From positions 26,660,001-26,724,000 of the forward strand of contig OZ024764.1 of NCBI GenBank assembly GCA_964016885.1: 64,000 nt of DNA, given 5' to 3'. The DNA is from Eledone cirrhosa (Eukaryota). This document shows, piece by piece, positions 3,839 to 47,785 of this stretch (position 1 is the first letter of the stretch; each line of letters opens with the position of its first letter). The translations under genes were made by a program, and so were the position numbers. A model generated the notes under the pieces. That model was not told the origin of the DNA. It did no database searches and saw nothing but the letters and a program-made list of their open reading frames with translations.

Positions 3839-4067
3839 CATGTAATGTTATGGACATCTCTGCCCCTGTGGCTAATAATTCTGTCATGTTATGTTATGGA
3901 CATCTCTGCCCCTGTGGCTAATAATTCTGACATGTAATGTTAGGGACATCTCTGCCCCAGTGGCTCATAATTCTGACATGTAATGTTATGGACATCTCTG
4001 CCCCTGTGGCTAATAATTCTGTCATGTAATGTTATGGACATCTCTGCCCCTGTGGCTAATAATTCTG
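3839..4067 (-). repeat. 46-bp minisatellite, ~5 units in inverted orientation
   Basis: CATGTAATGTTATGGACATCTCTGCCCCTGTGGCTAATAATTCTG is the reverse complement of the preceding array. Confidence 0.97.
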
Positions 4068-13539: not shown

Positions 13540-13907
13540 CAGTGATCCCCCTCGCAACCTTTAATTAAACAAACCTGCGATGAGGCGATGATCAAAATAA
13601 ACACCAAAGTGTAAACAAACAGCCCATAGGTGCTGCCGGATACACGATAACATGTGTAGACGAAGTAAAACTTTTATTACTGTAATATAAAGTAGAAACC
13701 CTTTATTTAAACAAAGCTGCGTGGCAGCGATGATCAAAACAAACTTCAAAGTGTAAACAAACCTCTCGTAGGTGCGGCCAGATACACGCTAACATGTGTA
13801 TACGAAGTGTAACAGGGAGTTGGGTCGTATTATATGACTTTCAAATTGACCCCTATTATATTCAAATTATCCCCTGTGGGGCGTGCACCCCACGTTGAGA
13901 ATCCCTC
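13540..13907 (+). mobile_element. hAT-like MITE remnant with internal ~135-bp duplication
   Basis: Starts CAGTGATCCCC and ends GTTGAGAATCCCTC (cf. hAT-MITE CAGTG..CCCAAC / GTTG.GAA...CTG ends). Internal repeat TTAAACAAA.CTGCG..GCGATGATCAAAA..AACATGTGTA.ACGAAGT. Confidence 0.5.
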
Positions 13908-14270
13908 ATAAATAAATATATGTGAGTGTGTTGCTATGACTGCTATTTCTAGCAGGTTTACTGCAGTCCTGTAGACGCACAACAAAAACCGGAAGTGGCA
14001 GCCATTAAAAAACTTTGGCTTAAAATCAGGCAAAAGTTTTTTAACAATTTGCCAAGAAAGATAACTCTTGTCTGACTTAATCGCAAAAATCGAGGCAAAA
14101 ATTTTGCGGCTGTGCAGTTTGTTTGGTGTATTTGACTGCTATTTCTAGCATGTATGGACGTATGTACGGTATAGGTGTATTTATATTTAGGATAGTTATC
14201 AAAGGTAAATAGACTGGTTGGAGTAATAACAGTCTTGTTTATGTATATACACACATATATACATATATAT

Positions 14271-17200
14271 CATCATCATCATCATCATCATCACCGTTTT
14301 ACGTCCGTTCTTCCACGCTAGCATGGGTTAGACGGGTTGTCCTGTTGTGGGCAGTGTCTGGTCGGCTGACCATGCCTTGCTCATACAGGAACTGATCTGG
14401 CTTGATTTCTACAGCTGGATGCCCTTCCTAACACCAACCTCATTTACAGTGAGTGCTGGGTGCTTTTTCGTGGCGCCTACACGTCCACTTTACAGTGTGG
14501 GCTGGGTGCTTTTTTGCCGTGGCACCTCCACGACCACCATGCGGTGGGGGGGGGGGGGCATATTGTTTATATGCTTCAGCATGTACCCATGGGAGGTCGG
14601 GTACCCTGTATTACTGCGTGACGCCAGAAGTCACGGTCGTGTGTCATTGACTTTGAGAGGTGTAGTTGGGTAAGGTCGGCTTTTATCACCTCATCCCAAG
14701 TCATCTTGGGTCTCCCCACTCCGCGGTTTCCATCAACTTCTAGTGCTCTGCACCTTTTTATGCAGCTGTCATCCTTCATACGCATCACATGTCCATACCA
14801 GCGTAACCGCCTCTCCTGCACGCAGCATTTGATTCCTCTTATGCTCAGTCTCTCTCTCAATTCATTTATGCTTTGTCGTTCATGTATATTACTGTTACAC
14901 ATCCATCGGAGCATGCAGGCTTCGTTTCTCTCTAATCTACGTAAGTCTTCCACCTTCAGCGCCCAGGTCTCACTACCATGCAACATCGCTGTTCGGATAC
15001 ACGCATCATACAGTCTGCCTTTCATTCTGAGGGAGAAGCCTTTTGCAGCTAGCAGTGGTAGTAGTTCCCTAAACTTCTTCCATCCCGTTCTTACCCTAGT
15101 TATTGTACTTTCTGAGCACCCACCTCCGTTGCTAATTCGGTCACCTAAGTAGCAGAAGCTGTCTACTGTTTCTACAGGGCCCTCCCAGAGATTGGTGGTA
15201 CTTGTTTCCTGTGGCTGTTTGCTTGCTGTTTCAGCACAGCTGCTGCATGTGAATCCTACATTCTTAATTAAGCTTCCTGAGATCCCGCTACATCTCTTGT
15301 GTACCCATTGGTTGCATTTGGGGCAAAGAATGGAGTTCCTACCTACACCTTTCCTACATACTGAGCAAGGCCATTTCCCTGAGGGGATCTGGGTTCTGTT
15401 TTCTCGTCTACTTATAAGGACCTTAGTCTTTGTCATGTTGACTTTGAGGCCCTTTCTCTCTAGTCCCTGCTTCCAGGTTTGGAATTTATTCTCTAGTTCT
15501 ACCATAGATTCAGCTATGAGTGCGAGGTCATCAGCATACAGGAGTTCCCATGGGCATCCGGTCTTAAACTCCTCCGTTATTGCCTGCAGGACTATGATGA
15601 ACAGGAGAGGGCTAAGAACAGAGCCCTGGTGGACCCCAACCTGTACGCTAAATTCCTCGCTATACTCATTGCCAATCCTAACTTTGCTGACTGCTCCCCT
15701 ATACATGGCTTGTACCGCTTTCACAAGCCATTCATCTACTCCTAGTTTTCTAAGAGCCCACCAGATTACTGCACGTGGAACTCTGTCAAAGGCTTTCTCA
15801 AGGTCGACAAATGCCAAGTAGAGTGGCTTACTTTTAGCTAGGTACTTTTCCTGTAATTGCCTCACAAGGAAGAGCGCATCAGTGGTGCCTTTCCCTGGTA
15901 CAAACCCAAATTGCATCTCGTCTATATTCACCCGGTCCCTAATCAGCTGTGCTATAACTCTTTCTGTTACTTTCATGACCTGGTCCATCAACTTTATACC
16001 TCTATAGTTTCCTCTATCTAGTGCATCGCCTTTACCCTTGTAGCAGTTGACAATGATGCTACTGCACCAATCTTTTGGTATGGCCCCCTCTAGTATTACC
16101 TGGTTAACAATACGTGTGGTTATAGTGTGACCTACAGACCCAGATGCCTTCAGCATCTCGGCAGCTATACCCGATGGACCGGTTGCCTTCCCTATCTTCA
16201 TATCTCTGATTGCCTTACTTACTACGCTGCCGCTGACTTGTACTGCTGGTCCCTCTATAGGGTCTACGTGGGGTAGGGTCTCTTCTTCCCATGCATTCTC
16301 CTCATTTAGTAATCTATCATAATGACTCTTCCATGCATCTTTCTTCTCAGCACTTGTGAGGGCAAGCTCACCTTTATCATTCCGGATACACTTCTCTCCA
16401 ATGACATCACAACTATCTCTGACACACTGCCTCGCAATCTTGAATACCTCCTGTTTCTGGTCCTCACGTTGTAAAACATGCTTGAATTTTCTATCCTCTG
16501 CTTCCCTCCTAGCTAAGTATACTTGTCGCCTAGCTTCCCTCTTGGTCTCTATGTAATGTACCCTGCTCCCCCCGTTCTTCCATTCTTTCCATGCCTGTCT
16601 CTTGGCCTTGACTGCTTCATCTACCTTATTGTTCCACCACCAAGTCACTCTCCTCCTGCTTGAGGTCTTACTCCAGCCACAAACCTCATCCGTCGCCTCT
16701 AGTAAGTTATTTTTTAGGAACTCCCAGTTCTCTTCTACGTTAAATGTCTCTATCTGTTCTTCTTTACTGTCGTAGGCGTTGAGTAAAATATCTTTAAATC
16801 TGTTACTGGTTGAGGGGACTTTCAGCTTCCAGATCTTTCTTCTCCAGGTTGGCCTCTGTTTCAGGGCTCGTCTAGTTCTGACCGTGAGGTCGCTGACAAC
16901 TAAGCTATGTTGGGATGTACATTCCTCACTAGGGAAGGCTTTTGTGTTTACGACCGTCCATCTGTCACGTCCTCTGATGAGGATAAAATCTAACTGACTA
17001 GAGTGCTCCCCTGATCTATAGGTGATCAGGTGGTTGTCGGGTTTTTTAAAGTTTGTGTTACATATCGACATGTCATTGGCGTCGCAGAATTCTAGAAGTC
17101 TGAATCCTTCCTCATTCCTTGTGCCAACTCCATGGCCTCCATGTACTCTATTGAAGCCGTCGCAGTGTTTACCTACATGTCCGTTAAAATCTCCTGCAAT

Positions 17201-17314
17201 GATTAGGAAGTCCTTGTCGTCTGTTAGAGCAGTAGTGTGTATTAGGGACTCGTAAAACCTATCCTTAAGTTCGTCTGGCAGCCCCGATTGGGGTGCGTAA
17301 GCTGATATTATTGT

Positions 17315-17316
<2 letters not shown>
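14271..17316 (-). mobile_element. Young 5'-truncated RTE-clade LINE inserted in a (TA)n tract
   Basis: (GAT)n 3' tail at 14271-14293, ~280-bp 3' UTR and an uninterrupted ORF. The flanks rejoin to the empty site seen at ~4971-5030 and ~27251-27310. Confidence 0.96.
14576..17314 (-). CDS. RTE ORF: partial AP endonuclease, reverse transcriptase and PHD-type zinc finger (5'-truncated; the Met at 17071 is internal)
   Basis: Frame stays open upstream of 17071 (TIISAYAPQ...IAGDFNGHVG). APE motifs SQLDFIL and SQHSLV; RT motifs NYRGIKL, QFGF, FVDLEKAFD, GVHQGSVLSP, YADD; C4HC3 at 15236-15367; LRWYGHVMR and GRPK.TW C-terminus. Confidence 0.93.
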   Translation of the reverse strand, partial: TIISAYAPQSGLPDELKDRFYESLIHTTALTDDKDFLIIAGDFNGHVGKHCDGFNRVHGGHGVGTRNEEGFRLLEFCDANDMSICNTNFKKPDNHLITYRSGEHSSQLDFILIRGRDRWTVVNTKAFPSEECTSQHSLVVSDLTVRTRRALKQRPTWRRKIWKLKVPSTSNRFKDILLNAYDSKEEQIETFNVEENWEFLKNNLLEATDEVCGWSKTSSRRRVTWWWNNKVDEAVKAKRQAWKEWKNGGSRVHYIETKREARRQVYLARREAEDRKFKHVLQREDQKQEVFKIARQCVRDSCDVIGEKCIRNDKGELALTSAEKKDAWKSHYDRLLNEENAWEEETLPHVDPIEGPAVQVSGSVVSKAIRDMKIGKATGPSGIAAEMLKASGSVGHTITTRIVNQVILEGAIPKDWCSSIIVNCYKGKGDALDRGNYRGIKLMDQVMKVTERVIAQLIRDRVNIDEMQFGFVPGKGTTDALFLVRQLQEKYLAKSKPLYLAFVDLEKAFDRVPRAVIWWALRKLGVDEWLVKAVQAMYRGAVSKVRIGNEYSEEFSVQVGVHQGSVLSPLLFIIVLQAITEEFKTGCPWELLYADDLALIAESMVELENKFQTWKQGLERKGLKVNMTKTKVLISRRENRTQIPSGKWPCSVCRKGVGRNSILCPKCNQWVHKRCSGISGSLIKNVGFTCSSCAETASKQPQETSTTNLWEGPVETVDSFCYLGDRISNGGGCSESTITRVRTGWKKFRELLPLLAAKGFSLRMKGRLYDACIRTAMLHGSETWALKVEDLRRLERNEACMLRWMCNSNIHERQSINELRERLSIRGIKCCVQERRLRWYGHVMRMKDDSCIKRCRALEVDGNRGVGRPKMTWDEVIKADLTQLHLSKSMTHDRDFWRHAVIQGTRPPMGTC

Positions 17317-17358
<42 letters not shown>

Positions 17359-17484
17359 TGGTATATATATATATATATATGTTTGTTCTTGTATTTCTAT
17401 AGAAAAGGTAAAGAAAAGAAGAATGCTCTATGTATTGTACAGAGCTATTTAATTACATAATAAACAACAGAATATAATTATTCC

Positions 17485-19839
17485 ATGCAAATAGACTTAG
17501 AATGGAAAACATTCAGACAGAGAAGAATGGATAATGAGCGTCATAAGAGAAATTGGCCAACAATTAATATTAATGGAAATCTAGAAGAATTTCATATTAG
17601 TGATATGAATGTTTCGTGTGATCACTGTGAAGCTTTGAAATTTAGAAATGAAAATTCTAACTGTTGTAATAAAGGAAAGGTTGTGTTGCCTCCATTGCAA
17701 ATATACCCCGAGAGACTGAGAAATCTCTTTGAAAGAGGCCAGGAAGCAGTTGATTTCACAGAAACATCTGCAATTAAAACTACATTTATTTCACTTCATT
17801 TGGTGTTACCACCCGGCAGAGGCCCGTATAGCTTTCATATTCAGGGTCAAACATATTACTACACCCCCACCTCTGTAACCTGCAGAAAATACACCACAAT
17901 ATGGCCAGTTATATATTATTGATGGGAACGAAGGTGTGTAGCACAGATTGGAAGTACGACCAAATAATTGTTTCTGGCACAAGGCCAGCAATTACTGGTA
18001 CTTTATTCTATCGACCTCATAAGGATGAAAACAAAGTCAACCTTGGAGGGATTTGAACCCAGAACGTAAAGGGCCATAACCCTATGCTGCAAAGCATGGT
18101 GTCTGACGCTCTACCGATACTGCCAATCCACCGCCCTAGTACCAACAAATAATGACTGCTCACCACAAAAAATGGCTATGATAAGAGAGGTGTTGCATGA
18201 ATGTTATCCATATGTCGAAGTGTACAATACAATGCATGGCATCAAACAGCAAAGTGCAAGAAGAGAAAATTGTCGTGTACAGAACTGTGAATTAAGATTT
18301 AGAAGAGGATCAGATATGAGCTGCTATAATTTACCAACTAGTAATGATAGCTGTTGTTTTGTGGGGTTTGAGGGCAGACCACCTGTACAAAGAGATATTA
18401 TCATCTTTCCTAAAGACCATCCTCCTCAGAAAATATCACATAATTCATGCCACTTGGACCTCATGACTGACCCATAATGGTGAATTTTGGTGGCATAGTG
18501 ACATGGAGAGGAATGCAGGACCTGTGTTTGCAATAGACTGACAATGCAGGAGTATTACATATACAGCATAGCATATAGAGGAGGATTTAGTGTGATATAT
18601 AGGGCAGGTAAATTATTTTAGCAGTATTTAGTGGATGCCTATATGAAAGTAGAGGGATGCAGGCTTCTATATTTGAGGAACAATCAAGCCCAATTGTGAG
18701 TGGATGAGTATAATGGTTTAATGAATTATCTAAACAGATGATAACACTGAGCCTTAAAAAATGAAGACAAGATAAGAAACAGAGAAGACATTGACAGAAT
18801 CGTGTCAGCAGAAATACCTGCATTGGAAGATGATCCAGTACTACATGAGCAGGTTTAAAAGTTTATGATCCACAGGCCATGTGGTTCTGGAAACCCTTTT
18901 CCCCCATTTATACAAAATGGATTTTTCAAAAAGAACTATCCAAAAACCTACAGAAGGGAAACATTATTGAACCTAAATGGATACCCAGAGTACAGGAGGT
19001 GCAAGACAGGAACTGCAGTGTAAATTGGATGACATTCAGTAGATAACAGGAATGTTGTGCCATTTAATGCCTTTTTGATTAAGAAATATTGTGCACATAT
19101 TAATGTTGAAGTTGGCGCTTCTGTAAAAAGTGTCAAGTACCTCTTTAAATATGTTACATGGGGCATGATTGTACATCTATAGAAGTAACGAATAATGCAT
19201 TACCTAATGAGGCTCAGAACCAACACAACCATGATGAAATAAGAACCTATCTTTGTTGCAGGTATGTGTCTCAGCCAGAAGCAGTGTCGTGTCTCTCGGA
19301 ATTTAAGCTTCATGGTACATCACATACAGTATACAGCCTAGTCACACACCTGGAGAACAAACAGAGTTTACTTTCAAAGAGGCAATGCTCAGGTTGTGGT
19401 AGAAATGCAGGGACCCTTGCTGCCTGGTTCAAGCTAAATGAACTTGCTTACACCTTCTGGGATGCCGCCTCACAAACTCCAATTATAAGCAGGATCAATA
19501 ATAATGCTTCTATGGAATATTTCAATCCAGAACAGATTATGTAATGGCACAAGATTAGAAGTAGTAGAACTGCATAAACATTTTATCAAAGCTTCTCATA
19601 TCTATGGTCCTTTGATGGGCAGGTGTGTTTTGATCCCAAGACTGAAGTTATCCCCCAGTGGTGCCAACATCCCTTTTACTTTGGAAAGACCCCAGTTTCC
19701 ATTAAGACTGTCATATGCCATGACAATCAACAAGAACCATGGTCAAATACATGATAAAGTGGGTCTGTTCCTCCCTGAGCAAGTATTTAACCCTGGACAA
19801 TTGTATGTTGCTTTTTCAAGAGTTCACAGACAGATGTAA
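17485..19839 (+). pseudogene. Decayed Helitron RepHel (copy A, most complete)
   Basis: Same motifs as 5110-7394, plus TLAAWFKLN and RLCNGTRLEV..IPRLKLSPS. Carries the same SINE at ~17976-18136. Confidence 0.92.
17976..18136 (-). mobile_element. Nin/Deu-like SINE (paralog of 5588-5748; also at ~33076-33236 and ~49846-50008)
   Basis: Near-identical sequence at the same Helitron position. Confidence 0.8.
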
Positions 19840-20409: not shown

Positions 20410-20778
20410 CAAACTATAACACATATAACTCTATCAGTGAAGCCCTTTAGTATAGGTCAACTAGGAAACTATAACACATATAACCCTATCAGTGAAGTCC
20501 TTTAGTATAGGTCAACTGGGAAACGATAACACATATAACCCTATCAGTGAAGTCCTCTGGGAAACTATAACACATATAACTCTATCAGTGAAGCCCTTTA
20601 TTATAGGTCAACTGGGAAACTATAACACATATAACCCTATCAGTGAAGTCCTTTAGTATAGGTCAACTGGGAAACTATAACACATATAACCCTATCAGTG
20701 AAGTCCTTTAGTATAGGTCAACTGGGAAATTATAACACATATAACCCTATCAGTGAAGTCCTTTAGTATAGGTCAACT
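20410..20778 (+). repeat. 55-bp minisatellite (~7 units) followed by a hAT-MITE-like end
   Basis: Unit GGGAAACTATAACACATATAACCCTATCAGTGAAGTCCTTTAGTATAGGTCAACT (CAGTG at 20641 and 20696). Downstream GTGGCCCGCGGGCCGCCTGTTGCACGCCCC. Paralog with ~5 units at ~37468-37725. Confidence 0.92.
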
Positions 20779-20862
20779 AACAGAAGTATTAAGGTGGGCT
20801 CGATTGTGGCCCGCGGGCCGCCTGTTGCACGCCCCTCCTTTAGACAGAATATCTATCACAGT

Positions 20863-23444: not shown

Positions 23445-23774
23445 GTCAGTGATCCCCCTCGCAACCTTTAATTAAACAAACCTGCGATGAGGCGATGATC
23501 AAAATAAACACCAAAGTATAAACAAACAGCCCATAGGTGCTGCCGGATACACGATAACATGTGTAGACGAAGTAAAACTTTTATTACTGTAATATAAAGT
23601 AGAAACCCTATATTTAAACAAAGCTGCGATGCAGCGATGATCAAAACAAACTTCAAATAACATGTGTATACGAAGTGTATCTGGAAGCTTGGTCGTATTA
23701 TATGACTTTCAAATTGACCCCTATTATATTCAAATTATCCCCTGTGGGGCGTGCACCCCACGTTGAGAATCCCT
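22081..23774 (+). mobile_element. hAT-like MITE ends enclosing captured RTE tail, CRE fragment and microsatellite hairpin (paralog ~39064-40818)
   Basis: Starts CAGTGGTC(G/C)CCAAACTTTT and ends GTTGAGAATCCCTC. The interior ~22263-23447 is homologous to 11538-13540 minus ~11780-12560. Confidence 0.5.
22722..23136 (+). mobile_element. CRE-like RLE fragment (paralog of 12820-13235; third copy ~39720-40135)
   Basis: Near-identical translation in the ORF track (22751, 39749). Confidence 0.75.
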
Positions 23775-24502
23775 CATAAATAAAAATATGTGAGTGTGTT
23801 GCTATGACTGCTATTTCTAGCAGGTTTACTGCAGTCCTGTAGACGCACAACAAAAACCGGAAGTGGCAGCCATTAAAAAACTTTGGCTTAAAATCAGCCA
23901 AAAGATTTTCAATAATAGTAAAATTTTATTTTTGACAAGGACGATAACTTTTGTCTTACTTAATCGCAAAAATCGAGGCAAAAATTTTGCGGGTGTGCAG
24001 TTTACACGCTAAAATAAACCTGCTAGAAATAGCAGTTATAGCAACTCACATATATTTATATATCATATATATATATATATATATATATCAGCCAAACACA
24101 CACCCTTATATATGTACGTGTGTGTGTGTTGACCGCTATATATATATATAGCAGCCAAACACATACACAGACACACATATATATATATATACATGTGTGT
24201 GTATATGTGTGTGTCCTCCTCTCGTCTATGGCTGTTATTTTTACATTGTCCTTTTTGTTATTTTTCTCGGGATTTGCCCGGATTCGAACATGCGACCACC
24301 TATTTACAATATAGAATCTTTACAGCTTTACTGACTTTTAAGTAATCCAAGTTGTAACCCCGGATTTAGTAGTGTTTAATTTATTTTGAAGTATTTTATT
24401 ATTGGCCTTAGTTAGACGATCGTCCAAGACCATGCTGGGGCATATATATATATATGTATATATATGTGTGTGTGTGTGTGTATGCTGGGGCATATATATA
24501 TA

Positions 24503-24560
<58 letters not shown>

Positions 24561-25090
24561 CTAGGGCATATATATATATGTGTGTGTGTGTATATATATA
24601 TATATGTGTGTGTGTCCTTTCTGTTATTCGCTGCTATTTCTAAAGTGTCAATATATATATCATATATATATATATATGATATATAAATATATGTAAGTGA
24701 GTTGCTATGACTGCTATTTCTAGCAGGTTTATTTTTAGCGTGTAAACTGCACACCCTCAAAATTTTTGCCTCGATTTTTGCGATTAAGTAAGACAAAAGT
24801 TATCGTCCTTGTCAAAAATAAAATTTTACTATTATTGAAAATCTTTTGGCTGATTTTAAGCCAAAGTTTTTTAATGGCTGCCACTTCCGGTTTTTGTTGT
24901 GCGTCTACAGGACTGCAGTAAACCTGCTAGAAATAGCAGTCATAGCAACACACTCACATATATTTATTTATGAGGGATTCTCAACGTGGGGTGCACGCCC
25001 CACAGCGGATAATTTGAATATAATAGGGGTCAATTTGAAAGTCATATAATACGACCCAACTCCCTGTTACACTTCGTATACACATGTTAT
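23657..25090. repeat. Long inverted repeat: arms ~23657-24080 and ~24662-25090, ~580-bp spacer
   Basis: Arms are near-perfect reverse complements; the ORF track shows mirrored ORFs 23698..23901(-) and 24846..25049(+). Confidence 0.95.
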
Positions 25091-25876
25091 CGTGTATCTG
25101 GCAGCACCTGCGAGAAGTTTGTTTACATTTTGGGGTTTGCTTTGATGATCGCTGCATCGCAGCTTTGTTTAAATAAAAGGTTTCTACTTTATATTACAGT
25201 AATAACACTTTTACAAGACTCGGATTGTTTTTATATTAAAGGGGACATGTTTTTTAAACTCTGAACTCAGCATCTTTCTGTTGTTCTCCGGGATTCTAGC
25301 AAAGTATAAAAATATATATATATATATAGCTGGCAGTCAACCTCAGACTCGAAAAAGCCGCCGCTAATCGTGATCGTTGGGGTTATAATTAGACTAAAAG
25401 TGCTTCCACTGGGCACCATTAGCTGATTGTGATCATTGGAGAATTCTTTCTGCGCTGAAAGAGCCTAGGACTAAAAGATATATATATAGATGTCGAAACG
25501 GCAGTAGCACAGCCGTTGGGGTCCTGAATATTTTCACATCTATATATGTGTGAGTATTCTGCGACATTTATAATTACATAAGCAAGCATATTTGAATAAC
25601 AAAATTTGAGGTTTAAATACTTTATTTTTTACCAATAACATAGAGAAAGGCATGAACAACACCACATGTTAATTACTTTAATATTGAAAGTAGGGTTATA
25701 AAGATTAAAAAAGCAGATTTTTTAATCTTTCATGGTGGTCTGGTGGGTGATACCAGAGATGGTGGTAGTCCTGGTTTCGGTTTCAATCCCGGTCATGGGT
25801 TACATATAAGGTCTCATTTTTTTTTTTCTTTCTTTCAGTTTTCTTCTTATCTCTAGATATAAATATATATACATAA

Positions 25877-25985
25877 GGTAATTTGGTAGAATTGTTAGAA
25901 CATCAGATAGAATTCTTTGCAGTATTTTTCCAGTTCTTTACTCTGAGTTCAACTTTACCTTTCTTCCATTCGGTGTCGATAAGTC
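25877..25985 (+). mobile_element. Highly decayed Nin/Deu-like SINE (once per 2.6-kb unit)
   Basis: TTGGTAGAATTGTTAGAAC...CTGAGTTCAA.CTTTACCTTTCTTCCATTCGGTGTCGATAA resembles the SINE at 5588-5748 in sense orientation. Confidence 0.55.
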
Positions 25986-27677
25986 TTGAATATGTCTAAC
26001 GTAGCAATAATTGGAGCTACTTAACCAAGTTTTCCCAACCTAGTCGATGTCACCTACTGGTTGGCGATTTAAACTGTTGGCTGGGACAATGACCAACTAA
26101 TCAGTCAGATTCGAACTCACTATGTCTGGCATATATTTTATATTTTATATTTGAATGACGTTCTGTAAGTAACCTGGTGGCTTAGATGGCAATACTGCTC
26201 GAATAGATGGCTTCTATTATGAAGTTATAAGTTCATTCCCTATCCAGGATTGTAGAATTAATTTTATTTAGTTATTATTTAATCAATTGTTTTAACAAAC
26301 AAATTATATCTATAAAACGCCAAATATAGTGAGTTCAAATCTGACTGACATGCATGGTATATATTTATGTTTCATTATACAACGACACAATACACAGGAA
26401 CTTATAAAGATATGTATATATTGTCCAGGAGTTTCGAGTTTAGTGGGAATTGGTACAACTCTCAATTGGAGCTAGTTCCTGCAAGATCAGCATAAATAAT
26501 GTTATACCTTTTCATGAAATCTTGCACACCCGATGTTTTATACATGATTATTTAAAGGTGAACAAAAACCAAAGAACATTGTGCAGCATTTCTCAACCTT
26601 TCTACCCATGTCGATCTCTTGAAATAGTTTTTATGTCTCAGGGATGCCCTGCATAAAATATACTTTTTCTATCTCTAGAGCAGTGGTTCCCAAATCGTGT
26701 GCTGCGAGATGAAACAAGATGAGCTGCAAAAGACTAAGATTAAGTTTTAAGATGTGAAAAATATAAAACTGAAATTTCATATAAAAGTTCAAATATAGCT
26801 ACAGCCACAAACCTAGGCTCCACACCCCGCAATGCAAAGGATAGTAAGATAGTACCAAGGCCTGACTCACCTCTTCCACTCCATTGAGACCTCTGCCATA
26901 CTTGGTCCCTGTACTGCTGATTTCCTCCATAAAGTCGGGAGGAAAGACGACAGGAGCTTCATGAGGAGGGGCGACTATTGTAGCAGGTGTCTCTGGCCTT
27001 GCTCCGAGGTAACGCTTTTACGTTTCTTCCACAGGTTGCGGCTGAGGGACCACTTAGACTGGGGTGAAGTGTCTGTCCCTCCCCCGACTTCTTACTTCTT
27101 TTTTTTTCTCATTTTCATTTTCTTTTCTCTTCTTGCTTATCTCTGCTATACCACGGCATCAAAAACATATATGATATGTGTATGTATGGTATAGGTGTAT
27201 TTATATTTAGGATAGTTATCAAAGGTAAATAGACTGGTTGAAGCAATAACAGTCTTGTTTATGTATATACACACATATATATATATATATATATATATCT
27301 GTTTGTTCTTGTATTTCCATAGAAAAGGTAAAGAAAAGAAGAATGCTCTATGTATTGTACAGAGCTATTTAATTACATAATAAACAACAGAATATAATTA
27401 TTCCATGCAAATAGACTTAGACTGGAAAACATTCAGACAGAGAAGAATGGATAATGAGCGTCGTAAGAGAAATTGGCCAACAATTAATATTAATGGAAAT
27501 GTAGAAGGATTTCATATTAGTGATATGAATGTTTCGTGTGATCACTGTGGAGCTTTGAAATTTAGAAATGAAAATTGTAACTGTTGTAATAAAGGAAAGG
27601 TTGTGTTGCCACCATTGCAAATATACCCTGAGAGACTGAGAAATCTCTTTGAAAGAGATTTCTCAGTCTCTCAGGGT

Positions 27678-28389
27678 ATATATTCCCGCCGTTGAAATAA
27701 AAATTTTAATAGAAAAGCGGCGGGAATATATGTTACAACCCAATCTATATATATTTAGGTTGTAACATATATTCCCGCCGTTGAAATAAAAATTTTAATA
27801 GAAAAACGGCGGGAATATATGTTACAGCCCAATCTATATATATTTGGGTTTTAACATATATTCCCGCCGTTGAAATAAACATTTTAATAGAAAAACGGCG
27901 GGAATATATGTTACAACCCAATCTACATATATTTGGGTTGTAACATATATTCCCGCCGTTGAAATAAAAATTTTAACATAAAAACGGCGGGAATATATAT
28001 TACAACCCAAACATATATAGGTTGGGTTGTAACATATATTCCCGCCGTTGAAATAAAAATTTTAACATAAAAACGGCGGGAATATATATTACAACCCAAA
28101 CATATATAGGTTGGGTTGTAACATATATTCCCGCCGTTTTTCTATTAAAATTTTTATTTCAACGGCGGGAATATATGTTACAACCCCAAAATATGTAGCT
28201 TGGATTGTAACATATATTCCCGCCGTTTTTCTATTAAAATTTTTATTTCAACGGCGGGAATATATGTTACAACTCAAATATATATAGATTGGGTTGTAAC
28301 ATATATTCCCGCCGTTTTTCTATTAAAATTTTTATTTCACCGGCAGGAATATGTTACAACCCAAATATATATATATTGAGTTGTAACAT
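27678..28389. repeat. 89-bp satellite of alternating inverted ~28-bp cores (8 units)
   Basis: ATTCCCGCCG at 27682, 27771 and 27860. Core TTGGGTTGTAACATATATTCCCGCCGTT alternates with its reverse complement. Confidence 0.96.
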
Positions 28390-29848
28390 GGGTTACATAT
28401 AAGGTCTCATTTTTTTTCTTTTCTTTCTTTCAGTTTTCTTCTTATCTCTAGATATAAATATATATACATAAGGTAACTTGGTAGAATTGTTAGAACATCA
28501 GATAGAATTCTTTGCAGTATTTTTCCAGTTCTTTACTCTGAGTTCAACTTTACCTTTCTTCCATTCAGTGTCGATAAGTCTTGAATATGTCTAACGTAGC
28601 AATAATTGGAGCTACTTAACCAAGTTTTCCCAACCTAGTCGATGTCACCTACTGGTTGGCGATTTAAAATGTTGGCTGCGACAATGACCAACTATTCAGT
28701 CAGATTCGAACTCACTATGTCTGGCATATATTTTATATTTTATATTTGAATGAAGTTCTGTAAGTAACCTGGTGGCTTAGATGGCAATACTGCTCGAATA
28801 GATGGCTTCTAGTTCATTCCCTATCCAGGATTGTAGAATTAATTTTATTTAGTTATTATTTAATCAATTGTTTTAACAAACAAATTATATCTATAAAACG
28901 CCAAATATAGTGAGTTCAAATCTGACTGACATGCATGGTATATATTTATGTTTCATTATACAGCGACACAATACACAGGAACTTATAAAGATATGTATAT
29001 ATTGTCCAGGAGTTTCGAGTTTAGTGGGAATTGGTACAACTCTCAGTTGGAGCTAGTCCCTGCAAGATCAGCATAAATAATGTTATACCTTTTCATGAAA
29101 TCTTGCACACCCGATATTTTATACATGATTATTTAAAGGTGAACAAAAACCAAAGAACATTGTGCAGCATTCTCAACCTTTCTACCCATGTCGATCTCTT
29201 GAAATAGTTTTTATGTCTCAGGGAAGCCCTGCATAAAATATACTTTTTCTATCTCTAGAGCAGTGGTTCCCAAATCGTGTGCTGAGAGATGAAACAAGAT
29301 GAGCTGCAAAAGACTAAGATTAAGTTTTATGATGTGAAAAATATAAAACTGAAATTTCATATAAAAGTTCAAATATAGCTACAGCCACAAACCTAGGCTC
29401 CACACCCCGCAATGCAGAGGATAGTAAGATAGTACCAAGGCCTGACTCACCTCTTCCACTCCATTGAGACCTCTGCCATACTTGGTCCCTGTACTGCTGA
29501 TTTCCTCCATAAAGTCGGGAGGAAAGACGACAGGAGCTTCATGAGGAGGGGCGACTATTGTAGCAGGTGTCTCTGGCCTTGCTCTGAGGTAACGCTTTTA
29601 CGTTTCTTCCACAGGTTGCGGCTGAGGGACCACTTAGACTGGGGTGAAGTGTCTGTCCCTCCCCCGACTTCTTACTTCTTTTTTTTTCTCATTTTCATTT
29701 TCTTTTCTCTTCTTGCTTATCTCTGCTATACCACGGCATCAAAAACATATATGATATATGTATGTATGGTATAGGTGTATTTATATTTAGGATAGTTATC
29801 AAAGGTAAATAGACTGGTTGGAGCAATAACAGTCTTGTTTATGTATGT

Positions 29849-29897
<49 letters not shown>

Positions 29898-30271
29898 TGT
29901 TCTTGTATTTCCATAGAAAAGGTAAAGAAAAGAAGAATGCTCTATGTATTGTACAGAGCTATTTAATTACATAATAAACAACAGAATATAATTATTCCAT
30001 GCAAATAGACTTAGAATGGAAAACATTCAGACAGAGAAGAATGGATAATGAGCGTCGTAAGAGAAATTGGCCAACAATTAATATTAATGGAAATGTAGAA
30101 GGATTTCATATTAGTGATATGAATGTTTCGTGTGATCACTGTGGAGCTTTGAAATTTAGAAATGAAAATTGTAACTGTTGTAATAAAGGAAAGGTTGTGT
30201 TGCCACCATTGCAAATATACCCTGAGAGACTGAGAAATCTCTTTGAAAGAGATTTCTCAGTCTCTCAGGGT

Positions 30272-30983
30272 ATATATTCCCGCCGTTGAAATAAAAATTT
30301 TAATAGAAAAACGGCGGGAATATATGTTACAACCCAATCTATATATATTTAGGTTGTAACATATATTCCCGCCGTTGAAATAAAAATTTTAATAGAAAAA
30401 CGGCGGGAATATATGTTACAGCCCAATCTATATATATTTGGGTTTTAACATATATTCCCGCCGTTGAAATAAACATTTTAATAGAAAAACGGCGGGAATA
30501 TATGTTACAACCCAATCTACATATATTTGGGTTGTAACATATATTCCCGCCGTTGAAATAAAAATTTTAACATAAAAACGGCGGGAATATATGTTACAAC
30601 CCAAACATATATAGGTTGGGTTGTAACATATATTCCCGCCGTTGAAATAAAAATTTTAACATAAAAACGGCGGGAATATATATTACAACCCAAACATATA
30701 TAGGTTGGGTTGTAACATATATTCCCGCCGTTTTTCTATTAAAATTTTTATTTCAACGGCGGGAATATATGTTACAACCCCAAAATATGTAGCTTGGATT
30801 GTAACATATATTCCCGCCGTTTTTCTATTAAAATTTTTATTTCAACGGCGGGAATATATGTTACAACTCAAATATATATAGATTGGGTTGTAACATATAT
30901 TCCCGCCGTTTTTCTATTAAAATTTTTATTTCACCGGCAGGAATATGTTACAACCCAAATATATATATATTGAGTTGTAACAT
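30272..30983. repeat. 89-bp inverted-core satellite (8 units)
   Basis: Near-identical to 27678-28389. Confidence 0.96.
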
Positions 30984-32442
30984 GGGTTACATATAAGGTC
31001 TCATTTTTTTTCTTTTCTTTCTTTCAGTTTTCTTCTTATCTCTAGATATAAATATATATACATAAGGTAACTTGGTAGAATTGTTAGAACATCAGATAGA
31101 ATTCTTTGCAGTATTTTTCCAGTTCTTTACTCTGAGTTCAACTTTACCTTTCTTCCATTCAGTGTCGATAAGTCTTGAATATGTCTAACGTAGCAATAAT
31201 TGGAGCTACTTAACCAAGTTTTCCCAACCTAGTCGATGTCACCTACTGGTTGGCGATTTAAAATGTTGGCTGCGACAATGACCAACTATTCAGTCAGATT
31301 CGAACTCACTATGTCTGGCATATATTTTATATTTTATATTTGAATGAAGTTCTGTAAGTAACCTGGTGGCTTAGATGGCAATACTGCTCGAATAGATGGC
31401 TTCTAGTTCATTCCCTATCCAGGATTGTAGAATTAATTTTATTTAGTTATTATTTAATCAATTGTTTTAACAAACAAATTATATCTATAAAACGCCAAAT
31501 ATAGTGAGTTCAAATCTGACTGACATGCATGGTATATATTTATGTTTCATTATACAGCGACACAATACACAGGAACTTATAAAGATATGTATATATTGTC
31601 CAGGAGTTTCGAGTTTAGTGGGAATTGGTACAACTCTCAGTTGGAGCTAGTCCCTGCAAGATCAGCATAAATAATGTTATACCTTTTCATGAAATCTTGC
31701 ACACCCGATATTTTATACATGATTATTTAAAGGTGAACAAAAACCAAAGAACATTGTGCAGCATTCTCAACCTTTCTACCCATGTCGATCTCTTGAAATA
31801 GTTTTTATGTCTCAGGGAAGCCCTGCATAAAATATACTTTTTCTATCTCTAGAGCAGTGGTTCCCAAATCGTGTGCTGAGAGATGAAACAAGATGAGCTG
31901 CAAAAGACTAAGATTAAGTTTTATGATGTGAAAAATATAAAACTGAAATTTCATATAAAAGTTCAAATATAGCTACAGCCACAAACCTAGGCTCCACACC
32001 CCGCAATGCAGAGGATAGTAAGATAGTACCAAGGCCTGACTCACCTCTTCCACTCCATTGAGACCTCTGCCATACTTGGTCCCTGTACTGCTGATTTCCT
32101 CCATAAAGTCGGGAGGAAAGACGACAGGAGCTTCATGAGGAGGGGCGACTATTGTAGCAGGTGTCTCTGGCCTTGCTCTGAGGTAACGCTTTTACGTTTC
32201 TTCCACAGGTTGCGGCTGAGGGACCACTTAGACTGGGGTGAAGTGTCTGTCCCTCCCCCGACTTCTTACTTCTTTTTTTTTCTCATTTTCATTTTCTTTT
32301 CTCTTCTTGCTTATCTCTGCTATACCACGGCATCAAAAACATATATGATATATGTATGTATGGTATAGGTGTATTTATATTTAGGATAGTTATCAAAGGT
32401 AAATAGACTGGTTGGAGCAATAACAGTCTTGTTTATGTATGT

Positions 32443-32483
<41 letters not shown>

Positions 32484-32584
32484 TGTTCTTGTATTTCCAT
32501 AGAAAAGGTAAAGAAAAGAAGAATGCTCTATGTATTGTACAGAGCTATTTAATTACATAATAAACAACAGAATATAATTATTCC

Positions 32585-33344
32585 ATGCAAATAGACTTAG
32601 AATGGAAAACATTCAGACAGAGAAGAATGGATAATGAGCGTCGTAAGAGAAATTGGCCAACAATTAATATTAATGGAAATGTAGAAGAATTTCATATTAG
32701 TGATATGAATGTTTCGTGTGATCACTGTGGAGCTTTGAAATTTAGAAATGAAAATTGTAACTGTTGTAATAAAGGAAAGGTAGTGTTGCCACCATTGCAA
32801 ATATACCCTGAGAGACTGAGAAATCTCTTTGAAAGAGGCCAGGAAGCAGTTGATTTCACAGAAACATCTGCAATTAAAACTACATTTATTTCACTTCATT
32901 TGGTGTTACCACCCGGCAGAGGCCCGTATAGATTTCATATTCAGGGTCAAACATATCAATACACACCCATCTCTGTAACCTGCAGAAAATACACCACAAT
33001 ATGGCCAGTTATATATTATTGATGGGAACGAAGGTGTGTAGCACAGATTGGAAGTACAACCAAATAATTGTTTCTGGCACAAGGCCAGCAATTACTGGTA
33101 CTTTATTCTATCGACCTCATAAGGATGAAAACAAAGTCAACCTTAGAGGGATTTGAACCCAGAACGTAAAGGGCCATAACCCTATGCTGCAAAGCATGGT
33201 GTCTGACGCTCTACCGATACTGCCAATCCACTGCCCTAGTCCCAACAAATAATGACTGCTCACCACAAAAAATGGCTATGATAAGAGAGGTGTTGCATGA
33301 ATATAATCCATATGTCGAAGTGTACAATACAATGCATGGCATCA
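32585..33344 (+). pseudogene. Helitron RepHel 5' part, interrupted at 33344
   Basis: Same as 17485-18244. The sequence resumes at 35946. Confidence 0.9.
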
Positions 33345-37119: not shown

Positions 37120-40100
37120 CTAAACACAATAAAATGTCACCTGTGCTACCAAAACTACCACAGGAACTCTGTCGGCATCAGCAAGGCTCAAGCCGAAAGG
37201 CTTCAATACTAGACCTGTAATCAGGGCCACTTTACCTCCGACGACCAGCTTTCTACCGAGTGTGTGTTGATGGAGGGGACATGGGACCAGCAAAGTCCTA
37301 GGAGTAGAGACTAGTAAATAATAAACGGTCCTAGCTATGTTAAGAATATATATAAGAAAAATGTTCTATACATTTAAGAAGACAAGAGAAATAAATATTT
37401 ACCTCTTTCATGTAGGTAATATAGCGGTGTTATAAAAGTATAATAACTGATGCAGGTAGTTTGTTTCAAACTATAACACATATAACTCTATCAGTGAAGC
37501 CCTTTAGTATAGGTCAACTGGGAAACTATAACACATATAACCCTATCAGTGAAGCCCTCTGGGAAACTATAACACATATAACTCTATCAGTGAAGCCCTT
37601 TAGTATAGGTCAACTGGGAAACTATAACACATATAACCCTATCAGTGAAGTCCTTTAGTATAGGTCAACTGGGAAATTATAACACATATAACCCTATCAG
37701 TGAAGTCCTTTAGTATAGGTCAACTAACAGAAGTATTACGGGTATGGAAAAAATTCTAAATAAGCCTACAACAGTCATTGCGGGCCACTCTGACTGGTCA
37801 GGTGGGCTCGATTGTGGCCCGCGGGCCGCCTGTTGCACGCCCCTCCTTTAGACAGAATATCTATCACTGTTAAGTAATACTGTGATCTGTCGGCTAACTA
37901 CATTTCCCAGCCTGTGGCGTTTGGGGGAGTCGGGATACTGACTGCGAGATTCCTATCTTCACTGGCGGCTAGCCTGACGAAGGTGACTGGTGAAGCTCGT
38001 GAGGGCACTTGGTTGTTCCAGCTCCTCAGCCTCGCCATCGCCCGGGGTAACGCTGCAGACGTGCTGGCTTGCCTAAAAAATCATTAGAGAGGTTTCCCAG
38101 TGCTCCTCGCGATACTGTTATCTTTTGCTCTAGTAGCAGCTCGTTTGTCCACCCCTTTCGCCTGCCTTTGGTTGTATGTCGTCCTAGATGTGTGTATTAC
38201 CTGCTTGTGTGTTGTATGTGGTCCTAGATGTGTGTATTGCCTGCTTATGTGGTCCTAGATGTATGTATTACCTGCTGGTGTGTTGTATGTGGTCCCAGAT
38301 GTGTGGATTACCTGTTTTTGTGTTGTATGTGGTCCCAAATGTGTGTGCTACCCGCTTCTGTGATTTGTTGTTTCTTCTTTCTCTCTTCCGAGAAACAATC
38401 CTGTATTTTTTTAATCTATTCCATGCGTTAAGTAATTAGCAGCAACAACAAACTGATTTTCAGTTGTAAAAAGAATCTTTAAACCTTCACCATTTACATT
38501 AACACATACCATACGTTGTCCCAGCCACAAATAAACAGTAAAAAAAACTTACTTTGCGGTTAAATTCTTCACAATTAAAAGAAAAATATTTCTAACACGT
38601 TTCTAGACAACACCAAGTTTACACCTTCAATATCCGGTAAAAGTAAAAACATATTCTGGAGACATTTAACGAAACGAAACTATGTAAAGAAAAACGAAAA
38701 TTAAACGAAGACAAATAGTAAATTTTAATTTTTATTAAATAAAATACCAGTAATTCACTGCAGTAGATTTAATCAACTTTACTCTCTCTGCACGAAAGAA
38801 GAAAAAAATTCCTGACTTAGTGCTTAATATATAGAGAGGGGGAGAGTTTGGTGTTACTTCATATAGAGAGGGGTATTGGAAGAGAGTGCCGTGTAGTAGA
38901 TATAGAGAGGGAGAGAGTGTGTGCTAATTGATATAAAGAGGGGGATTTGCACCCCCCCCCCGCCTAGTAAAATTCTGAAATGCTTCGACCTCCCTGTACA
39001 TATATATATATATATAGTATACACACACAGACATATATATAGTAAATAAATGTGTGTGTGTATCAGTGGTCCCCAAACTTTTCTGTTCCACACCCCTCCT
39101 CTAAAATATGTTTATGTTCCCCTTTAATATAAAAACAATCCGAGTATTCTGAAAGTATTATTACTGTAATATAAAGTAGAAACCCTTTATTTAAACAAAG
39201 CTACGATGCAGCGATGATCAAAACAAACTTCTCGTAGGTGCTGCCAAGCGGGGAAAAGTGGATGTATAATGATGATGATATATATATATATGCCCCACCC
39301 TTGCAAACAGGGAAAAGCAGACGTAAAATGAAAATGATGATATATATATAGATAGATAGATATGTATATATATATATTTATACTTATACGTCATGGTGGC
39401 TACAGGTGCCAAGAGGAAGAAGCCGGTCAAATCCTCTGATATTTGTTTATCTTCCTTTCCTTTGTACATATATATATATAGTATGTGTGTGTGTATGAAG
39501 ATGTATGACCCCTAGCAAGCCAAACTACAGTTACTCCCCAACATGGAGAGCAAATTAAAACATTACCTGTTAGAGAGGAACGTGAAATGAATTGTTAGTG
39601 AACTACCGGTGTCACAGTAATTATGTTACCGGTGTAACTATTTCTGTTTACCTTATTTTTAAATGACACTCCTATATTAGTTTAGTGACCTTTCAATTCA
39701 AATAAATTCTTGATGATGATTGAACTCGCATCGGAGTAGCCCAACGCCTTGGCCTCCGCGTGTGTGAGCCACATAAATGCTCTCAACGACATAGTGAGAA
39801 GAAGCCTGGACGCAGCTGAATTTCCATCTCAACTGGAGTCAGCAGGCTTAGGCCGCGGAGATGGCAAGCACCCCGAGGGAATCACCCTCTTCCCATTCGA
39901 AGGAGGTAGATCCACAAACCCCAGCATCGCTGCCCGTCTCGCAGATGAGCATAAAATAAACAAATTCCGGTGTTTGTCCTGGAGCCTCTTCTAAGCACCA
40001 GCCGCCGTCGAGACCCCGGGCCAACTTGGACCCATTACAGCCGAGCTCCTCCGCAACATCGCAGTGTCTGTGGCCCGTCTGAGGATGGAGTCCCACGAGG

Positions 40101-40700: not shown

Positions 40701-41721
40701 ATAACATGTGTATACGAAGTGTATCTGGAAGCTTGGTCGTATTATATGACTTTCAAATTGACCCCTATTATATTCAAATTATCCCCTGTGGGGCGTGCAC
40801 CCCACGTTGAGAATCCCTCATAAATAAATATATGTGAGTGTGTTGCTATGACTGCTATTTCTAGCAGGTTTACTGCAGTCCTGTAGACGCACAACAAAAA
40901 CCGGAAGTGGCAGCCATTAAAAAACTTTGGCTTAAAATCAGGCAAAAGTTTTTTAACAATTTGCCAAGAAAGATAACTCTTGTCTTACTTAATCGCAAAA
41001 ATCGAGGCAAAAATTTTGTGGGTGTACAGTTTGTTTGGTGTATTTGACTGCTATTTCTAGCATGTATGGACACTTTAGAAATAGCAGCGAAAAACGGAAA
41101 ACAGCAGAAAGAAGGACACACACCTATATATATATATATATATACCAGCTATACACTCACCCATACATATATATATATACCAGCTATACACACACCCATA
41201 TCTACGTATAGGTGTGTGTGCGCGCGTGTATGTATATATAAATATATATATTTAAATGTATATATCTGTGCATATATATATGTATATATATATATACGTG
41301 TGTGTCCTTCTTTCTTATGTTTCCCGTGTTTCGCTGCTATTTCTAAAGTGTCCATATATGCTAGAAATAGCAGTCAAATACACCAAACAAACTGCACACC
41401 CGCAAAATTTTTTGCCTCGATTTTTGCGATTAAGTAAGACAAGAGTTATCTTTCTTGGCAAATTGTTAAAAAACTTTTGCCTGATTTTAAGCCAAAGTTT
41501 TTTAATGGCTTCCACTTCCGGTTTTTGTTGTGCGTCTACAGGACTGCAGTAAACCTGCTAGAAATAGCAGTCATAGCAACACACTCACATATATTTATTT
41601 ATGAGGGATTCTCAACGTGGGGTGCACGCCCCACAGGGGATAATTTGAATATAATAGGGGTCAATTTGAAAGTCATATAATACGACCCAACTCCCTGTTA
41701 CACTTCGTATACACATGTTAT
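40701..41721. repeat. Long inverted repeat: arms ~40701-41140 and ~41282-41721, short microsatellite spacer
   Basis: Mirrored ORFs 40742..40945(-) and 41477..41680(+); arms read as reverse complements. Confidence 0.95.
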
Positions 41722-44006: not shown

Positions 44007-44379
44007 TGTTCTTGTATTTCCATAGAAAAGGTAAAGAAAAGAAGAATGCTATATATATTGTACAGAGCTATTTAATTACATAATAAACAACAGAATATAA
44101 TTATTCCATGCAAATAGACTTAGACTGGAAAACATTCAGACAGAGAAGAATGGATAATGAGCGTCGTAAGAGAAATTGCCAACAATTAATATTAATGGAA
44201 ATGTAGAAGAATTTCATATTAGTGATATGAATGTTTCGTGTGATCACTGTGGAGCTTTGAAATTTAGAAATGAAAATTGTAACTGTTGTAATAAAGGAAA
44301 GGTTATGTTGCCACCATTGCAAATATACCCTGAGAGACTGAGAAATCTCTTTGAAAGAGATTTCTCAGTCTCTCAGGGT

Positions 44380-45180
44380 ATATATTCCCGCCGGTGAAAT
44401 AAAAATTTTAATAGAAAAACGGCGGGAATATATGTTACAACCCAACCTACATATTTTTGGGTTGTAACATATATTCCCGCCGTTGAAATAAATATTTTAA
44501 TAGAAAAACGGCGGGAATATATGTTACAACCCAATCTATATATATTTGAGTTGTAACATATATTCCCGCCGTTGAAATAAAAATTTTAATAGAAAAACGG
44601 CGGGAATATATGTTACAACGCAATCTATATATATTTGGGTTGTAACATATATTCCCGCCGTTGAAATAAAAATTTTAATAGAAAAACGGCGGGAATATAT
44701 GTTACAACCCAACCTATATATGTTTGGGTTGTAATATATATTCCCGCCGTTTTTCTGTTAAAATTTTTATTTCAACGGCGGGAATATATGTTACAACCCA
44801 AATATATGTAGATTGGGTTGTAACATATATTCCCGCCGTTTTTCTATTAAAATTTTTATTTCGACGGCGGGAATATATGTTACAACCCAAATATATATAG
44901 ATTGCGTTGTAACATATATTCCCGCCGTTTTTCTATTAAAATTTTTATTTCAACGGCGGGAATATATGTTACAACCCAAATATATGTAGATTGGATTGTA
45001 ACATATATTCCCGCCGTTTTTCTATTCAAATTTTTATTTCAACGGCGGGAATATATGTTACAACTCAAATATATATAGATTGGGTTGTAACATATATTCC
45101 CGCCGTTTTTCTATTAAAATTTTTATTTCACCGGCGGGAATATGTTACAACCCAAATATATATATATTGAGTTGTAACAT
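44380..45180. repeat. 89-bp inverted-core satellite (9 units)
   Basis: Same cores; 4 forward and 5 reverse long spacers. Confidence 0.96.
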
Positions 45181-46699: not shown

Positions 46700-47073
46700 T
46701 GTTCTTGTATTTCCATAGAAAAGGTAAAGAAAAGAAGAATGCTATATATATTGTACAGAGCTATTTAATTACATAATAAACAACAGAATATAATTATTCC
46801 ATGCAAATAGACTTAGACTGGAAAACATTCAGACAGAGAAGAATGGATAATGAGCGTCGTAAGAGAAATTGGCCAACAATTAATATTAATGGAAATGTAG
46901 AAGGATTTCATATTAGTGATATGAATGTTTCGTGTGATCACTGTGGAGCTTTGAAATTTAGAAATGAAAATTGTAACTGTTGTAATAAAGGAAAGGTTAT
47001 GTTGCCACCATTGCAAATACACCCTGAGAGACTGAGAAATCTCTTTGAAAGAGATTTCTCAGTCTCTCAGGGT

Positions 47074-47785
47074 ATATATTCCCGCCGTTGAAATAAATAT
47101 TTTAATAGAAAAACGGCGGGAATATATGTTACAACCCAATCTATATATATTTAAGTTGTAACATATATTCCCGCCGTTGAAATAAAAATTTTAATAGAAA
47201 AACGGCGGGAATATATGTTACAACGCAATCTATATATATTTGGGTTGTAACATATATTCCCGCCGTTGAAATAAAAATTTTAATAGAAAAACGGCGGGAA
47301 TATATGTTACAACCCAACCTACATATGTTTGGGTTATAATATATATTCCCGCCGTTTTTCTGTTAAAATTTTTATTTCAACGGCGGGAATATATGTTACA
47401 ACCCAAATATATGTAGATTGGGTTGTAACATATATTCCCGCCGTTTTTCTATTAAAATTTTTATTTCGACGGCGGGAATATATGTTACAACCCAAATATA
47501 TATAGATTGCGTTGTAACATATATTCCCGCCGTTTTTCTATTAAAATTTTTATTTCAACGGCGGGAATATATGTTACAACCCAAATATATGTACATTGGA
47601 TTGTAACATATATTCCCGCCGTTTTTCTATTCAAATTTTTATTTCAACGGCGGGAATATATGTTACAACTCAAATATATATAGATTGGGTTGTAACATAT
47701 ATTCCCGCCGTTTTTCTATTAAAATTTTTATTTCACCGGCGGGAATATGTTACAACCCAAATATATATATATTGAGTTGTAACAT
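47074..47785. repeat. 89-bp inverted-core satellite (8 units)
   Basis: Same cores; 3 forward and 5 reverse long spacers. Confidence 0.96.

Follow-up and report, generated by a model that had tools for sequence, protein, structure and literature searches.

DNA ends that fold back and copy themselves have been described in several systems. In yeast, breaks are followed by local fold-back inversions of 5-34 bp and, separately, by insertions from distant sites in two inverted halves joined through microhomology of 0-4 bp (Yu et al. 2024, PMC11724301). The same primer-repeat logic underlies snap-back SD-MMEJ in Drosophila (Yu and McVey 2010, PMC2943611), polymerase theta can be templated alternately in cis and in trans (Kent et al. 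2016, PMC4912351), and template switching in primates creates stems of 30-55 bp (Monttinen et al. 2023, PMC10710096). Tandem repeats and satellites derived from MITEs are represented by Xstir, miDNA4 and Angel (reviewed in PMC12628747). In this study, we describe a complex junction within a dead Helitron of Eledone cirrhosa, which most probably was made once by break or fork repair and then amplified to 88 copies.

The palindrome at 27621-27681 of the window (the whole stretch of 64,000 nucleotides herewith analysed, located on contig C25 of the 3.0-Gb animal genome) had been noted in a preliminary description as a pair of 30-bp arms around a 1-nt loop, and the palindrome scan confirmed this reading. 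Perfect palindromes with 30-bp arms and a 1-nt loop (G) were found at 27621-27681, 30215-30275 and 44323-44383, while the one at 47017-47077 carries one substitution in its left arm and retains a perfect core of 26 bp. These recurrences agree with those listed before, except that the genome contains not four but 88 copies. The chance expectation for such a palindrome is about 6e-8 per 3 Gb. The DNA fold of the palindrome strand gave -31.7 kcal/mol (z -11.3; none of 200 shuffles equally good), with 29 rather than 30 bp paired in the physical hairpin, for which a 3-nt loop is required. The intact Helitron locus folds no better than its shuffles (z -0.55), and the seed alone forms 5 bp with a 3-nt loop (-2.1 kcal/mol). 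The 61-base palindrome is real and lies inside a dead Helitron.

The seed of 13 nt, followed by the intact Helitron continuation, is present in the window at 5337, 17725, 32825 and 49596 [the first three agree with the earlier positions, but the fourth had been placed 20 nucleotides off, at 49616], and 2364 bp of the Helitron element contain two seeds of this type (6-bp inverted repeat with a 1-nt centre). The primer repeat, that is, the 6-bp seed, exists in the intact copies and its end coincides exactly with the breakpoint, and the fold-back insertion is the reverse complement of the adjoining sequence in 24/24 nt. Both the seed in the intact copies and the 24/24 match support the earlier proposal that the palindrome grew from the seed by fold-back and self-copying of 24 nt. 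The fold-back product and the array overlap by ATAT at 27678-27681; the proposed switch through ATAT stands as a real 4-nt overlap, but shrinks to 2 nt if the terminal unit with the 2-nt shift (see below) was the template. The junction carries the three sequence-level features of snap-back templated insertion, i.e., a primer repeat, a reverse-complement insertion and a microhomology end. A single event of break repair, in which a DNA end folded back and copied itself, probably left the palindrome as its scar.

Self-alignment of the window gave the pattern X-J-X-J-X, in which X is a segment of 1864 bp and J, composed of the 24-nt fold-back copy and an array of 89-bp units, sits between tandem copies of X (Table 1). 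J passes into the array through the 4-nt overlap, and 3 shared nucleotides (CAT) lead back to the start of X. The last X of the run continues as intact Helitron sequence, and the entire X-J run is repeated about 17 kb downstream. Non-junction copies on C18 and C23 run from the same upstream context into X without interruption. The palindrome forms one side of the junction that closes a 1.86-kb tandem duplication. This duplication with its closure via CAT, the nature of the array as a MITE multimer and a large inverted repeat, and the absence of the array core from the rest of the assembly were missing in the preliminary description, which to this extent was incomplete.

Table 1. Coordinates of the Helitron remnant, the X segments and the junctions in the window
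Feature	Position	Strand	Remarks
Decayed, frameshifted Helitron RepHel remnant without junction	17464..19839	+	intact-state reference; seed 17725-17737
Segment X, first copy	25794..27657	+	1864 bp, duplicated unit; ends within decayed Helitron RepHel 5' coding region
Left arm of palindrome	27621..27650	+	ancestral Helitron sequence, fold-back template
Ancestral seed	27645..27657	+	6-bp inverted repeat, 1-nt centre
New 24-nt inverted copy of 27621-27644 (fold-back product)	27658..27681	+	last 4 nt overlap array
89-bp array, 5 forward + 3 inverted units	27678..28389	.	78-bp MITE copy + 11-nt TA-rich spacer; both ends inside MITE terminal repeat
Exit microhomology CAT, array to X start	28387..28389	+	same junction point in 88/88 copies
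Second X copy	28387..30251	+	self-alignment
Second junction	30215..30983	+	palindrome 30215-30275, array 5+3
Third X copy	30981..33344	+	continues into intact Helitron, seed 32825-32837
Third junction	44323..45180	+	palindrome 44323-44383, array 4+5; centre opposite in orientation to first junction
Fourth junction	47017..47785	+	palindrome with one substitution, array 3+5

The array unit is composed of a 78-bp element with 28-bp terminal inverted repeats and a TA-rich spacer of 11 nt, and the junctions carry 4-15 units each (759 units in total). Every array is organized as n forward units followed by m inverted units with a single switch. The central linker at this switch is oriented one way in 43 copies, the opposite way in 23, and otherwise in 22. 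Since the neighbouring units are inverted together with the linker, the two centre orientations point to recombination between the array arms. A variant at position 8 of the core was detected in 36 of the 88 first units and 84 of the 88 last units, against 0 of 583 internal units, and in at least 81 of the 88 arrays the last unit is shifted by 2 nt at the site that mirrors the entry point. This confinement of the variant to the outermost units, together with the mirrored shift, indicates that the array arms are mirror-related out to their ends. All 469 exact matches to the array core genome-wide fall inside the 88 junctions, as do 739 of 751 matches to a second array 26-mer, of which one more lies in a single MITE on C13 and 11 are unplaced. 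By exact core match, no separate donor array is present in this assembly, and a single donor MITE with a changed core could have served instead.

Related MITE loci were collected for comparison with the array unit. Both terminal repeats are present in 27 of 29 distinct loci, which measure 75-81 bp from end to end with terminal repeats of about 28 bp and show a mean identity of 83% to the array unit. TA is found on both sides, as a target-site duplication, in 21 of the 27 loci, many of the flanks being (TA)n. The hairpin has 604 matches genome-wide, of which 520 lie in arrays; about 84 copies with perfect inner arms are located outside arrays. The family, about 79 bp in length, TA-flanked and with at least two core types, is dispersed on many chromosomes, often within (TA)n runs. 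The array unit is one copy of this dispersed MITE plus a TA-rich spacer. The TA flanks suggest a Tc1/mariner origin, possibly of the MADE1-like type. No long partner of the MITE was identified among 30 terminal-repeat loci, and the search for an autonomous mariner partner gave no convincing match (at best 10 mismatches in 31 nt) in the 30 top-ranking loci out of 150 that were scored, from 3185 Transposase_1 candidates. Foldback (FB-type) transposons, with long terminal inverted repeats of tandem units, occupy many insertion sites and generate a target duplication. The array resembles them in being an inverted repeat of tandem units, but this candidate was rejected after finding one insertion context in 88/88 copies and no target duplication.

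Genome-wide, the palindrome centre gave 85 exact matches, all in three clusters on C18 (16), C20 (13) and C25 (56), and the exit junction gave 82 exact matches in the same three clusters; the union of both searches is a set of 88 junctions (C18, 18; C20, 14; C25, 56). They are arranged in runs of one (50 runs), two (11), three (4) or four (1) junctions, with a mean divergence among copies of 0.7-1.8% over 311 bp. The entry and exit points are identical in 88/88 junctions, and because all copies share them, we conclude that there was one founder event, amplified with a macrosatellite/segmental-duplication block. The spread to three chromosomes was probably passive, by duplications. Other Helitron copies were compared at the seed, as had been suggested beforehand, and the intact members proved to be without the palindrome: an ancestral palindrome was not found in 223 seed matches that go on with C/G/T (most of these being counted rather than read individually; the first 100 matches listed lie on 8 contigs). 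The seed followed by A/C/T is present at 92 sites, of which 85 are junction copies, whereas the other 7 differ from intact copies by point changes; on this basis, repeated truncation at this seed was rejected.

As to the surroundings of these clusters, a megabase-scale composite macrosatellite, including the Helitron remnant, LINE pieces (RTE), a 46-bp satellite and CT-rich blocks, is common to the three chromosomes, spanning 26.47-29.07 Mb on C25, 34.9-35.8 Mb on C18 and 26.8-27.2 Mb on C20. On C23 (8.61-8.63, 15.19-15.29 and 17.45-17.57 Mb), the same Helitron remnant is arranged head-to-tail with a period of about 8.2-8.6 kb (in some cases 11 kb), without the palindrome junction. Within the window, the 46-bp satellite switches its orientation at 3839-3840 and at 61208-61294, the latter switch being itself palindromic (arms of 40 bp, loop of 7 nt), i.e., a fold-back-like junction. 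An RTE-type LINE is located at 14576-17452 on the minus strand, with a 958-aa open frame that includes endonuclease, RVT_1 and a PHD-finger match, and a decayed relative lies at 9400-11400 (+). A repeat of about 470-500 bp, possibly another MITE, occurs in both orientations (24744-25244, 13665-14159, 23572-24003 and 41350-41845), often as an inverted pair upstream of X. A 55/41-bp tandem array is present in the repeated block at 20411-20779 and 37468-37725, and its unit number differs between the copies.

The Helitron itself is represented by decayed sequence. A Pif1_2B_dom match was obtained at 19489-19836 (E 7.6e-07, above cut-off), and the N-terminal piece at 32564 has as its nearest named Atlas cluster one with Helitron_like_N in 25% of its members (score 0.90), while five further Helitron pieces gave no significant Pfam match. 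The remnant listed first in Table 1 also contains motifs that we take to be Rep-like. The RepHel reading frames are broken into small pieces, and the Helitron ends (5' TC and 3' hairpin-CTRR) were not located, the DNA search for the 5' end having scored the 40 best of 1368 candidates.

In the order of events that we consider most likely for the founder, a 3' end that had broken or stalled at the 6-bp seed would fold back, or switch strands there [the 1-nt centre fits an interstrand template switch without a hairpin], and copy 24 nt of itself. The copied end would then be joined through the 2-4-nt overlap to the inverted MITE-derived array, whose far end would be joined through CAT (3 nt) at a point 1.86 kb upstream, giving the tandem duplication. 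Subsequently, unequal exchange would vary the number of junctions (runs of 1-4) and of array units (4-15), and segmental duplication would carry the junctions to three chromosomes. The polymerase would be of the Pol theta or Pol delta type. The fold-back and the array entry given in the preliminary description are present in the product; we infer the priming on the seed, the order of steps (there, fold-back first and array second) and the later spread by unequal exchange and segmental duplication. Among the findings that run against this reading of the founder, the capture step has no visible source array, and even the shortest array (4 units, about 350 bp) exceeds the median of 50-150 bp for inverted insertions in PMC11724301.

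Palindromes are a typical chimera product, and the 88 junctions might be regarded as a sequencing or assembly artefact, produced by fold-back chimera of long reads. The Illumina reads of three other samples, however, cover the fold-back arm, so that the raw-read check suggested beforehand came out in favour of the palindrome. The depth on the arm was about 17, 39 and 10, compared with 89, 94 and 27 for the reads continuing intact [three samples with the same species label from one reduced-representation study, the values being bin depths rather than counts of junction-spanning reads]. The fold-back share is 16-29% in the reads, near the expected share of about 28% in the assembly (88 versus about 229). 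A 48-nt contig that lies over the entry junction extends for fewer than 31 letters to either side, and was not counted as bridging. Moreover, the 88 copies carry private and shared substitutions, including mismatches in one arm. Because of the arm depth in the reads and these one-arm substitutions, an artefact is very unlikely. The same substitutions bear on the proposal that the hairpin is functional or actively maintained, as a source of pre-miRNA or siRNA or as a protein-binding cruciform, or through repeated arm-to-arm correction. The perfect 30-bp stem falls in the size range of the miRNA stems born by template switching (PMC10710096). The full 61 nt are kept in 88/88 copies, including all 82 selected by the exit junction alone, with no loss of length, and no palindrome variant has reached three copies. 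Perfect palindromes are found in 75 of the 88; the other 13 carry 14 substitutions (11 distinct) and no indels. Variants in at least three copies are 0 of 11 in the palindrome against 11 of 37 in the flank (Fisher p 0.048, binomial p 0.09), and most flank variants reaching this level are absent from the 22 intact copies examined, which hints weakly at correction between the arms instead of pure neutrality. Against maintenance, the density of distinct substitutions per site is the same as in the flank (0.18 versus 0.165 in the 200-bp upstream flank; binomial p 0.59 on 249 flank sites), none of the 88 palindromes holds a compensating pair, and the loop is far below the 10 nt or more preferred for pri-miRNA (PMC10710096). 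The Rfam search of the palindrome gave 0/133 matches at gathering score, and a known pre-miRNA or other RNA family was rejected. Since the full length is present in all 88 copies with a flank-like density of substitutions, no function is needed to explain retention; the palindrome is likely without function, and active maintenance is improbable. The retention in four copies, presented earlier as a puzzle for a cruciform-prone sequence, loses its basis, as these four belong to 88 passive copies of one event. The human genome has about 180,000 palindromes longer than 40 bp, and cruciform extrusion requires supercoiling (PMC7999016); for both reasons the survival of this palindrome is unremarkable.

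The remaining alternatives concern the origin of the run and of its array. If the run were a rolling-circle concatemer of the Helitron, with the palindrome acting as a surrogate 3' terminator hairpin, X-J-X-J-X would represent aberrant head-to-tail replication products, and each run indeed has several 5' parts and one 3' continuation, like the truncated Helitron arrays reviewed in PMC12628747. In non-junction copies, however, the same upstream DNA runs uninterrupted across the left breakpoint, which thus is not like an element end; dispersed single insertions are absent (all 88 lie in three clusters), the RepHel frames survive only in small pieces, and the hairpin is followed by the array instead of a CTRR end. 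With all these points, we regard a concatemer as highly improbable. A two-step history, in which a short inverted MITE cluster pre-existed, perhaps joined to the start of X, and the fold-back arose later by the same mechanism when the Helitron end was joined to this cluster (the array being captured, not made in that event), is a tentative but serious possibility. In contigs of another organism, B, the 89-bp tandem joint is present, as is a piece that corresponds to the array's terminal hairpin, including its 2-nt shift. In a 568-nt Helitron contig of B, on the other hand, the seed is passed without a break, and no contig covers the fold-back arm. Because organism B has array pieces together with an intact seed and an uncovered arm, the array may have preceded the palindrome, and more than one step may have gone into building the junction; these contigs, however, drop rare variants and cannot prove absence. 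The MITEs are frequently found within (TA)n runs, in which dimers or duplications by slippage would arise easily. On the other side, this assembly contains no palindrome-free array, and the position-8 variant, being restricted to the outermost unit at either end, is in keeping with a mirror copy that extended as far as the entry point. The converse, a satellite born at the repair junction, would require that one old MITE was multiplied by repeated copying and that a second fold-back, at the time of the event or shortly afterwards, added the mirror image, giving a self-folding array. It would further require that the array flip-flops and changes its unit number in the 88 copies, and that correction between the arms keeps old variants out of the 30-bp palindrome; taken as a whole, this chain is rather unlikely. 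An array captured ready-made and one grown in place are variants of the same reading, that of a single founder made by break or fork repair.

This founder and its descendants constitute a natural experiment: with 88 copies of one repair junction, a spacerless palindrome with 30-bp arms is seen to pass the animal germline undeleted. The array shows a MITE becoming a minisatellite that expands, contracts and inverts its centre. If it is true that the array arose at the junction, break repair would be a directly observed cradle for satellite DNA.

Among the known systems, the fold-back events of yeast share with this junction a short inverted microhomology by the break (here priming the 24-nt inverted copy), an insert in two inverted halves, and overlaps of 0-4 bp. 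The local example in PMC11724301 has a 41-nt spacer and an imperfect 10-bp seed, compared with 1 nt and 6 bp here. Furthermore, both event types are combined in our case, the insert is a multi-unit MITE array, and a 1.86-kb tandem duplication is closed; the product has been inherited and amplified in an animal germline. With SD-MMEJ and polymerase theta (PMC2943611 and PMC4912351), it shares the inverted primer repeat on one side, the extension up to a microhomology, the inverted repeat across the junction, and templating in cis and then in trans. The typical insertions there, in contrast, are short (median 7 bp in vitro), and an array of 350-1300 bp is too long for a single event of this kind. 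Template switching in primates likewise yields a perfect stem of about 30 bp in one step from a quasi-palindrome, and its loop inversion between inverted arms may be compared with the array centre. In the events of PMC10710096, replication returns to the nearby original template, whereas here it leaves for another sequence and a duplication results.

Xstir, miDNA4 and Angel agree with the present array in being tandem arrays derived from a tiny inverted-repeat element. In comparison with those reviewed in PMC12628747, each unit here consists of an entire MITE and a TA-rich spacer; the array as such forms an inverted repeat, its centre occurring in two orientations, and is restricted to one repair junction. 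No description of a MITE array confined to a fold-back junction was found in the titles and abstract openings of the literature, from which no claim of absence is made. Fold-back scars of this size are already well described, and the palindrome itself is ordinary; the less ordinary part is the junction-confined MITE array with its 88 natural replicates.
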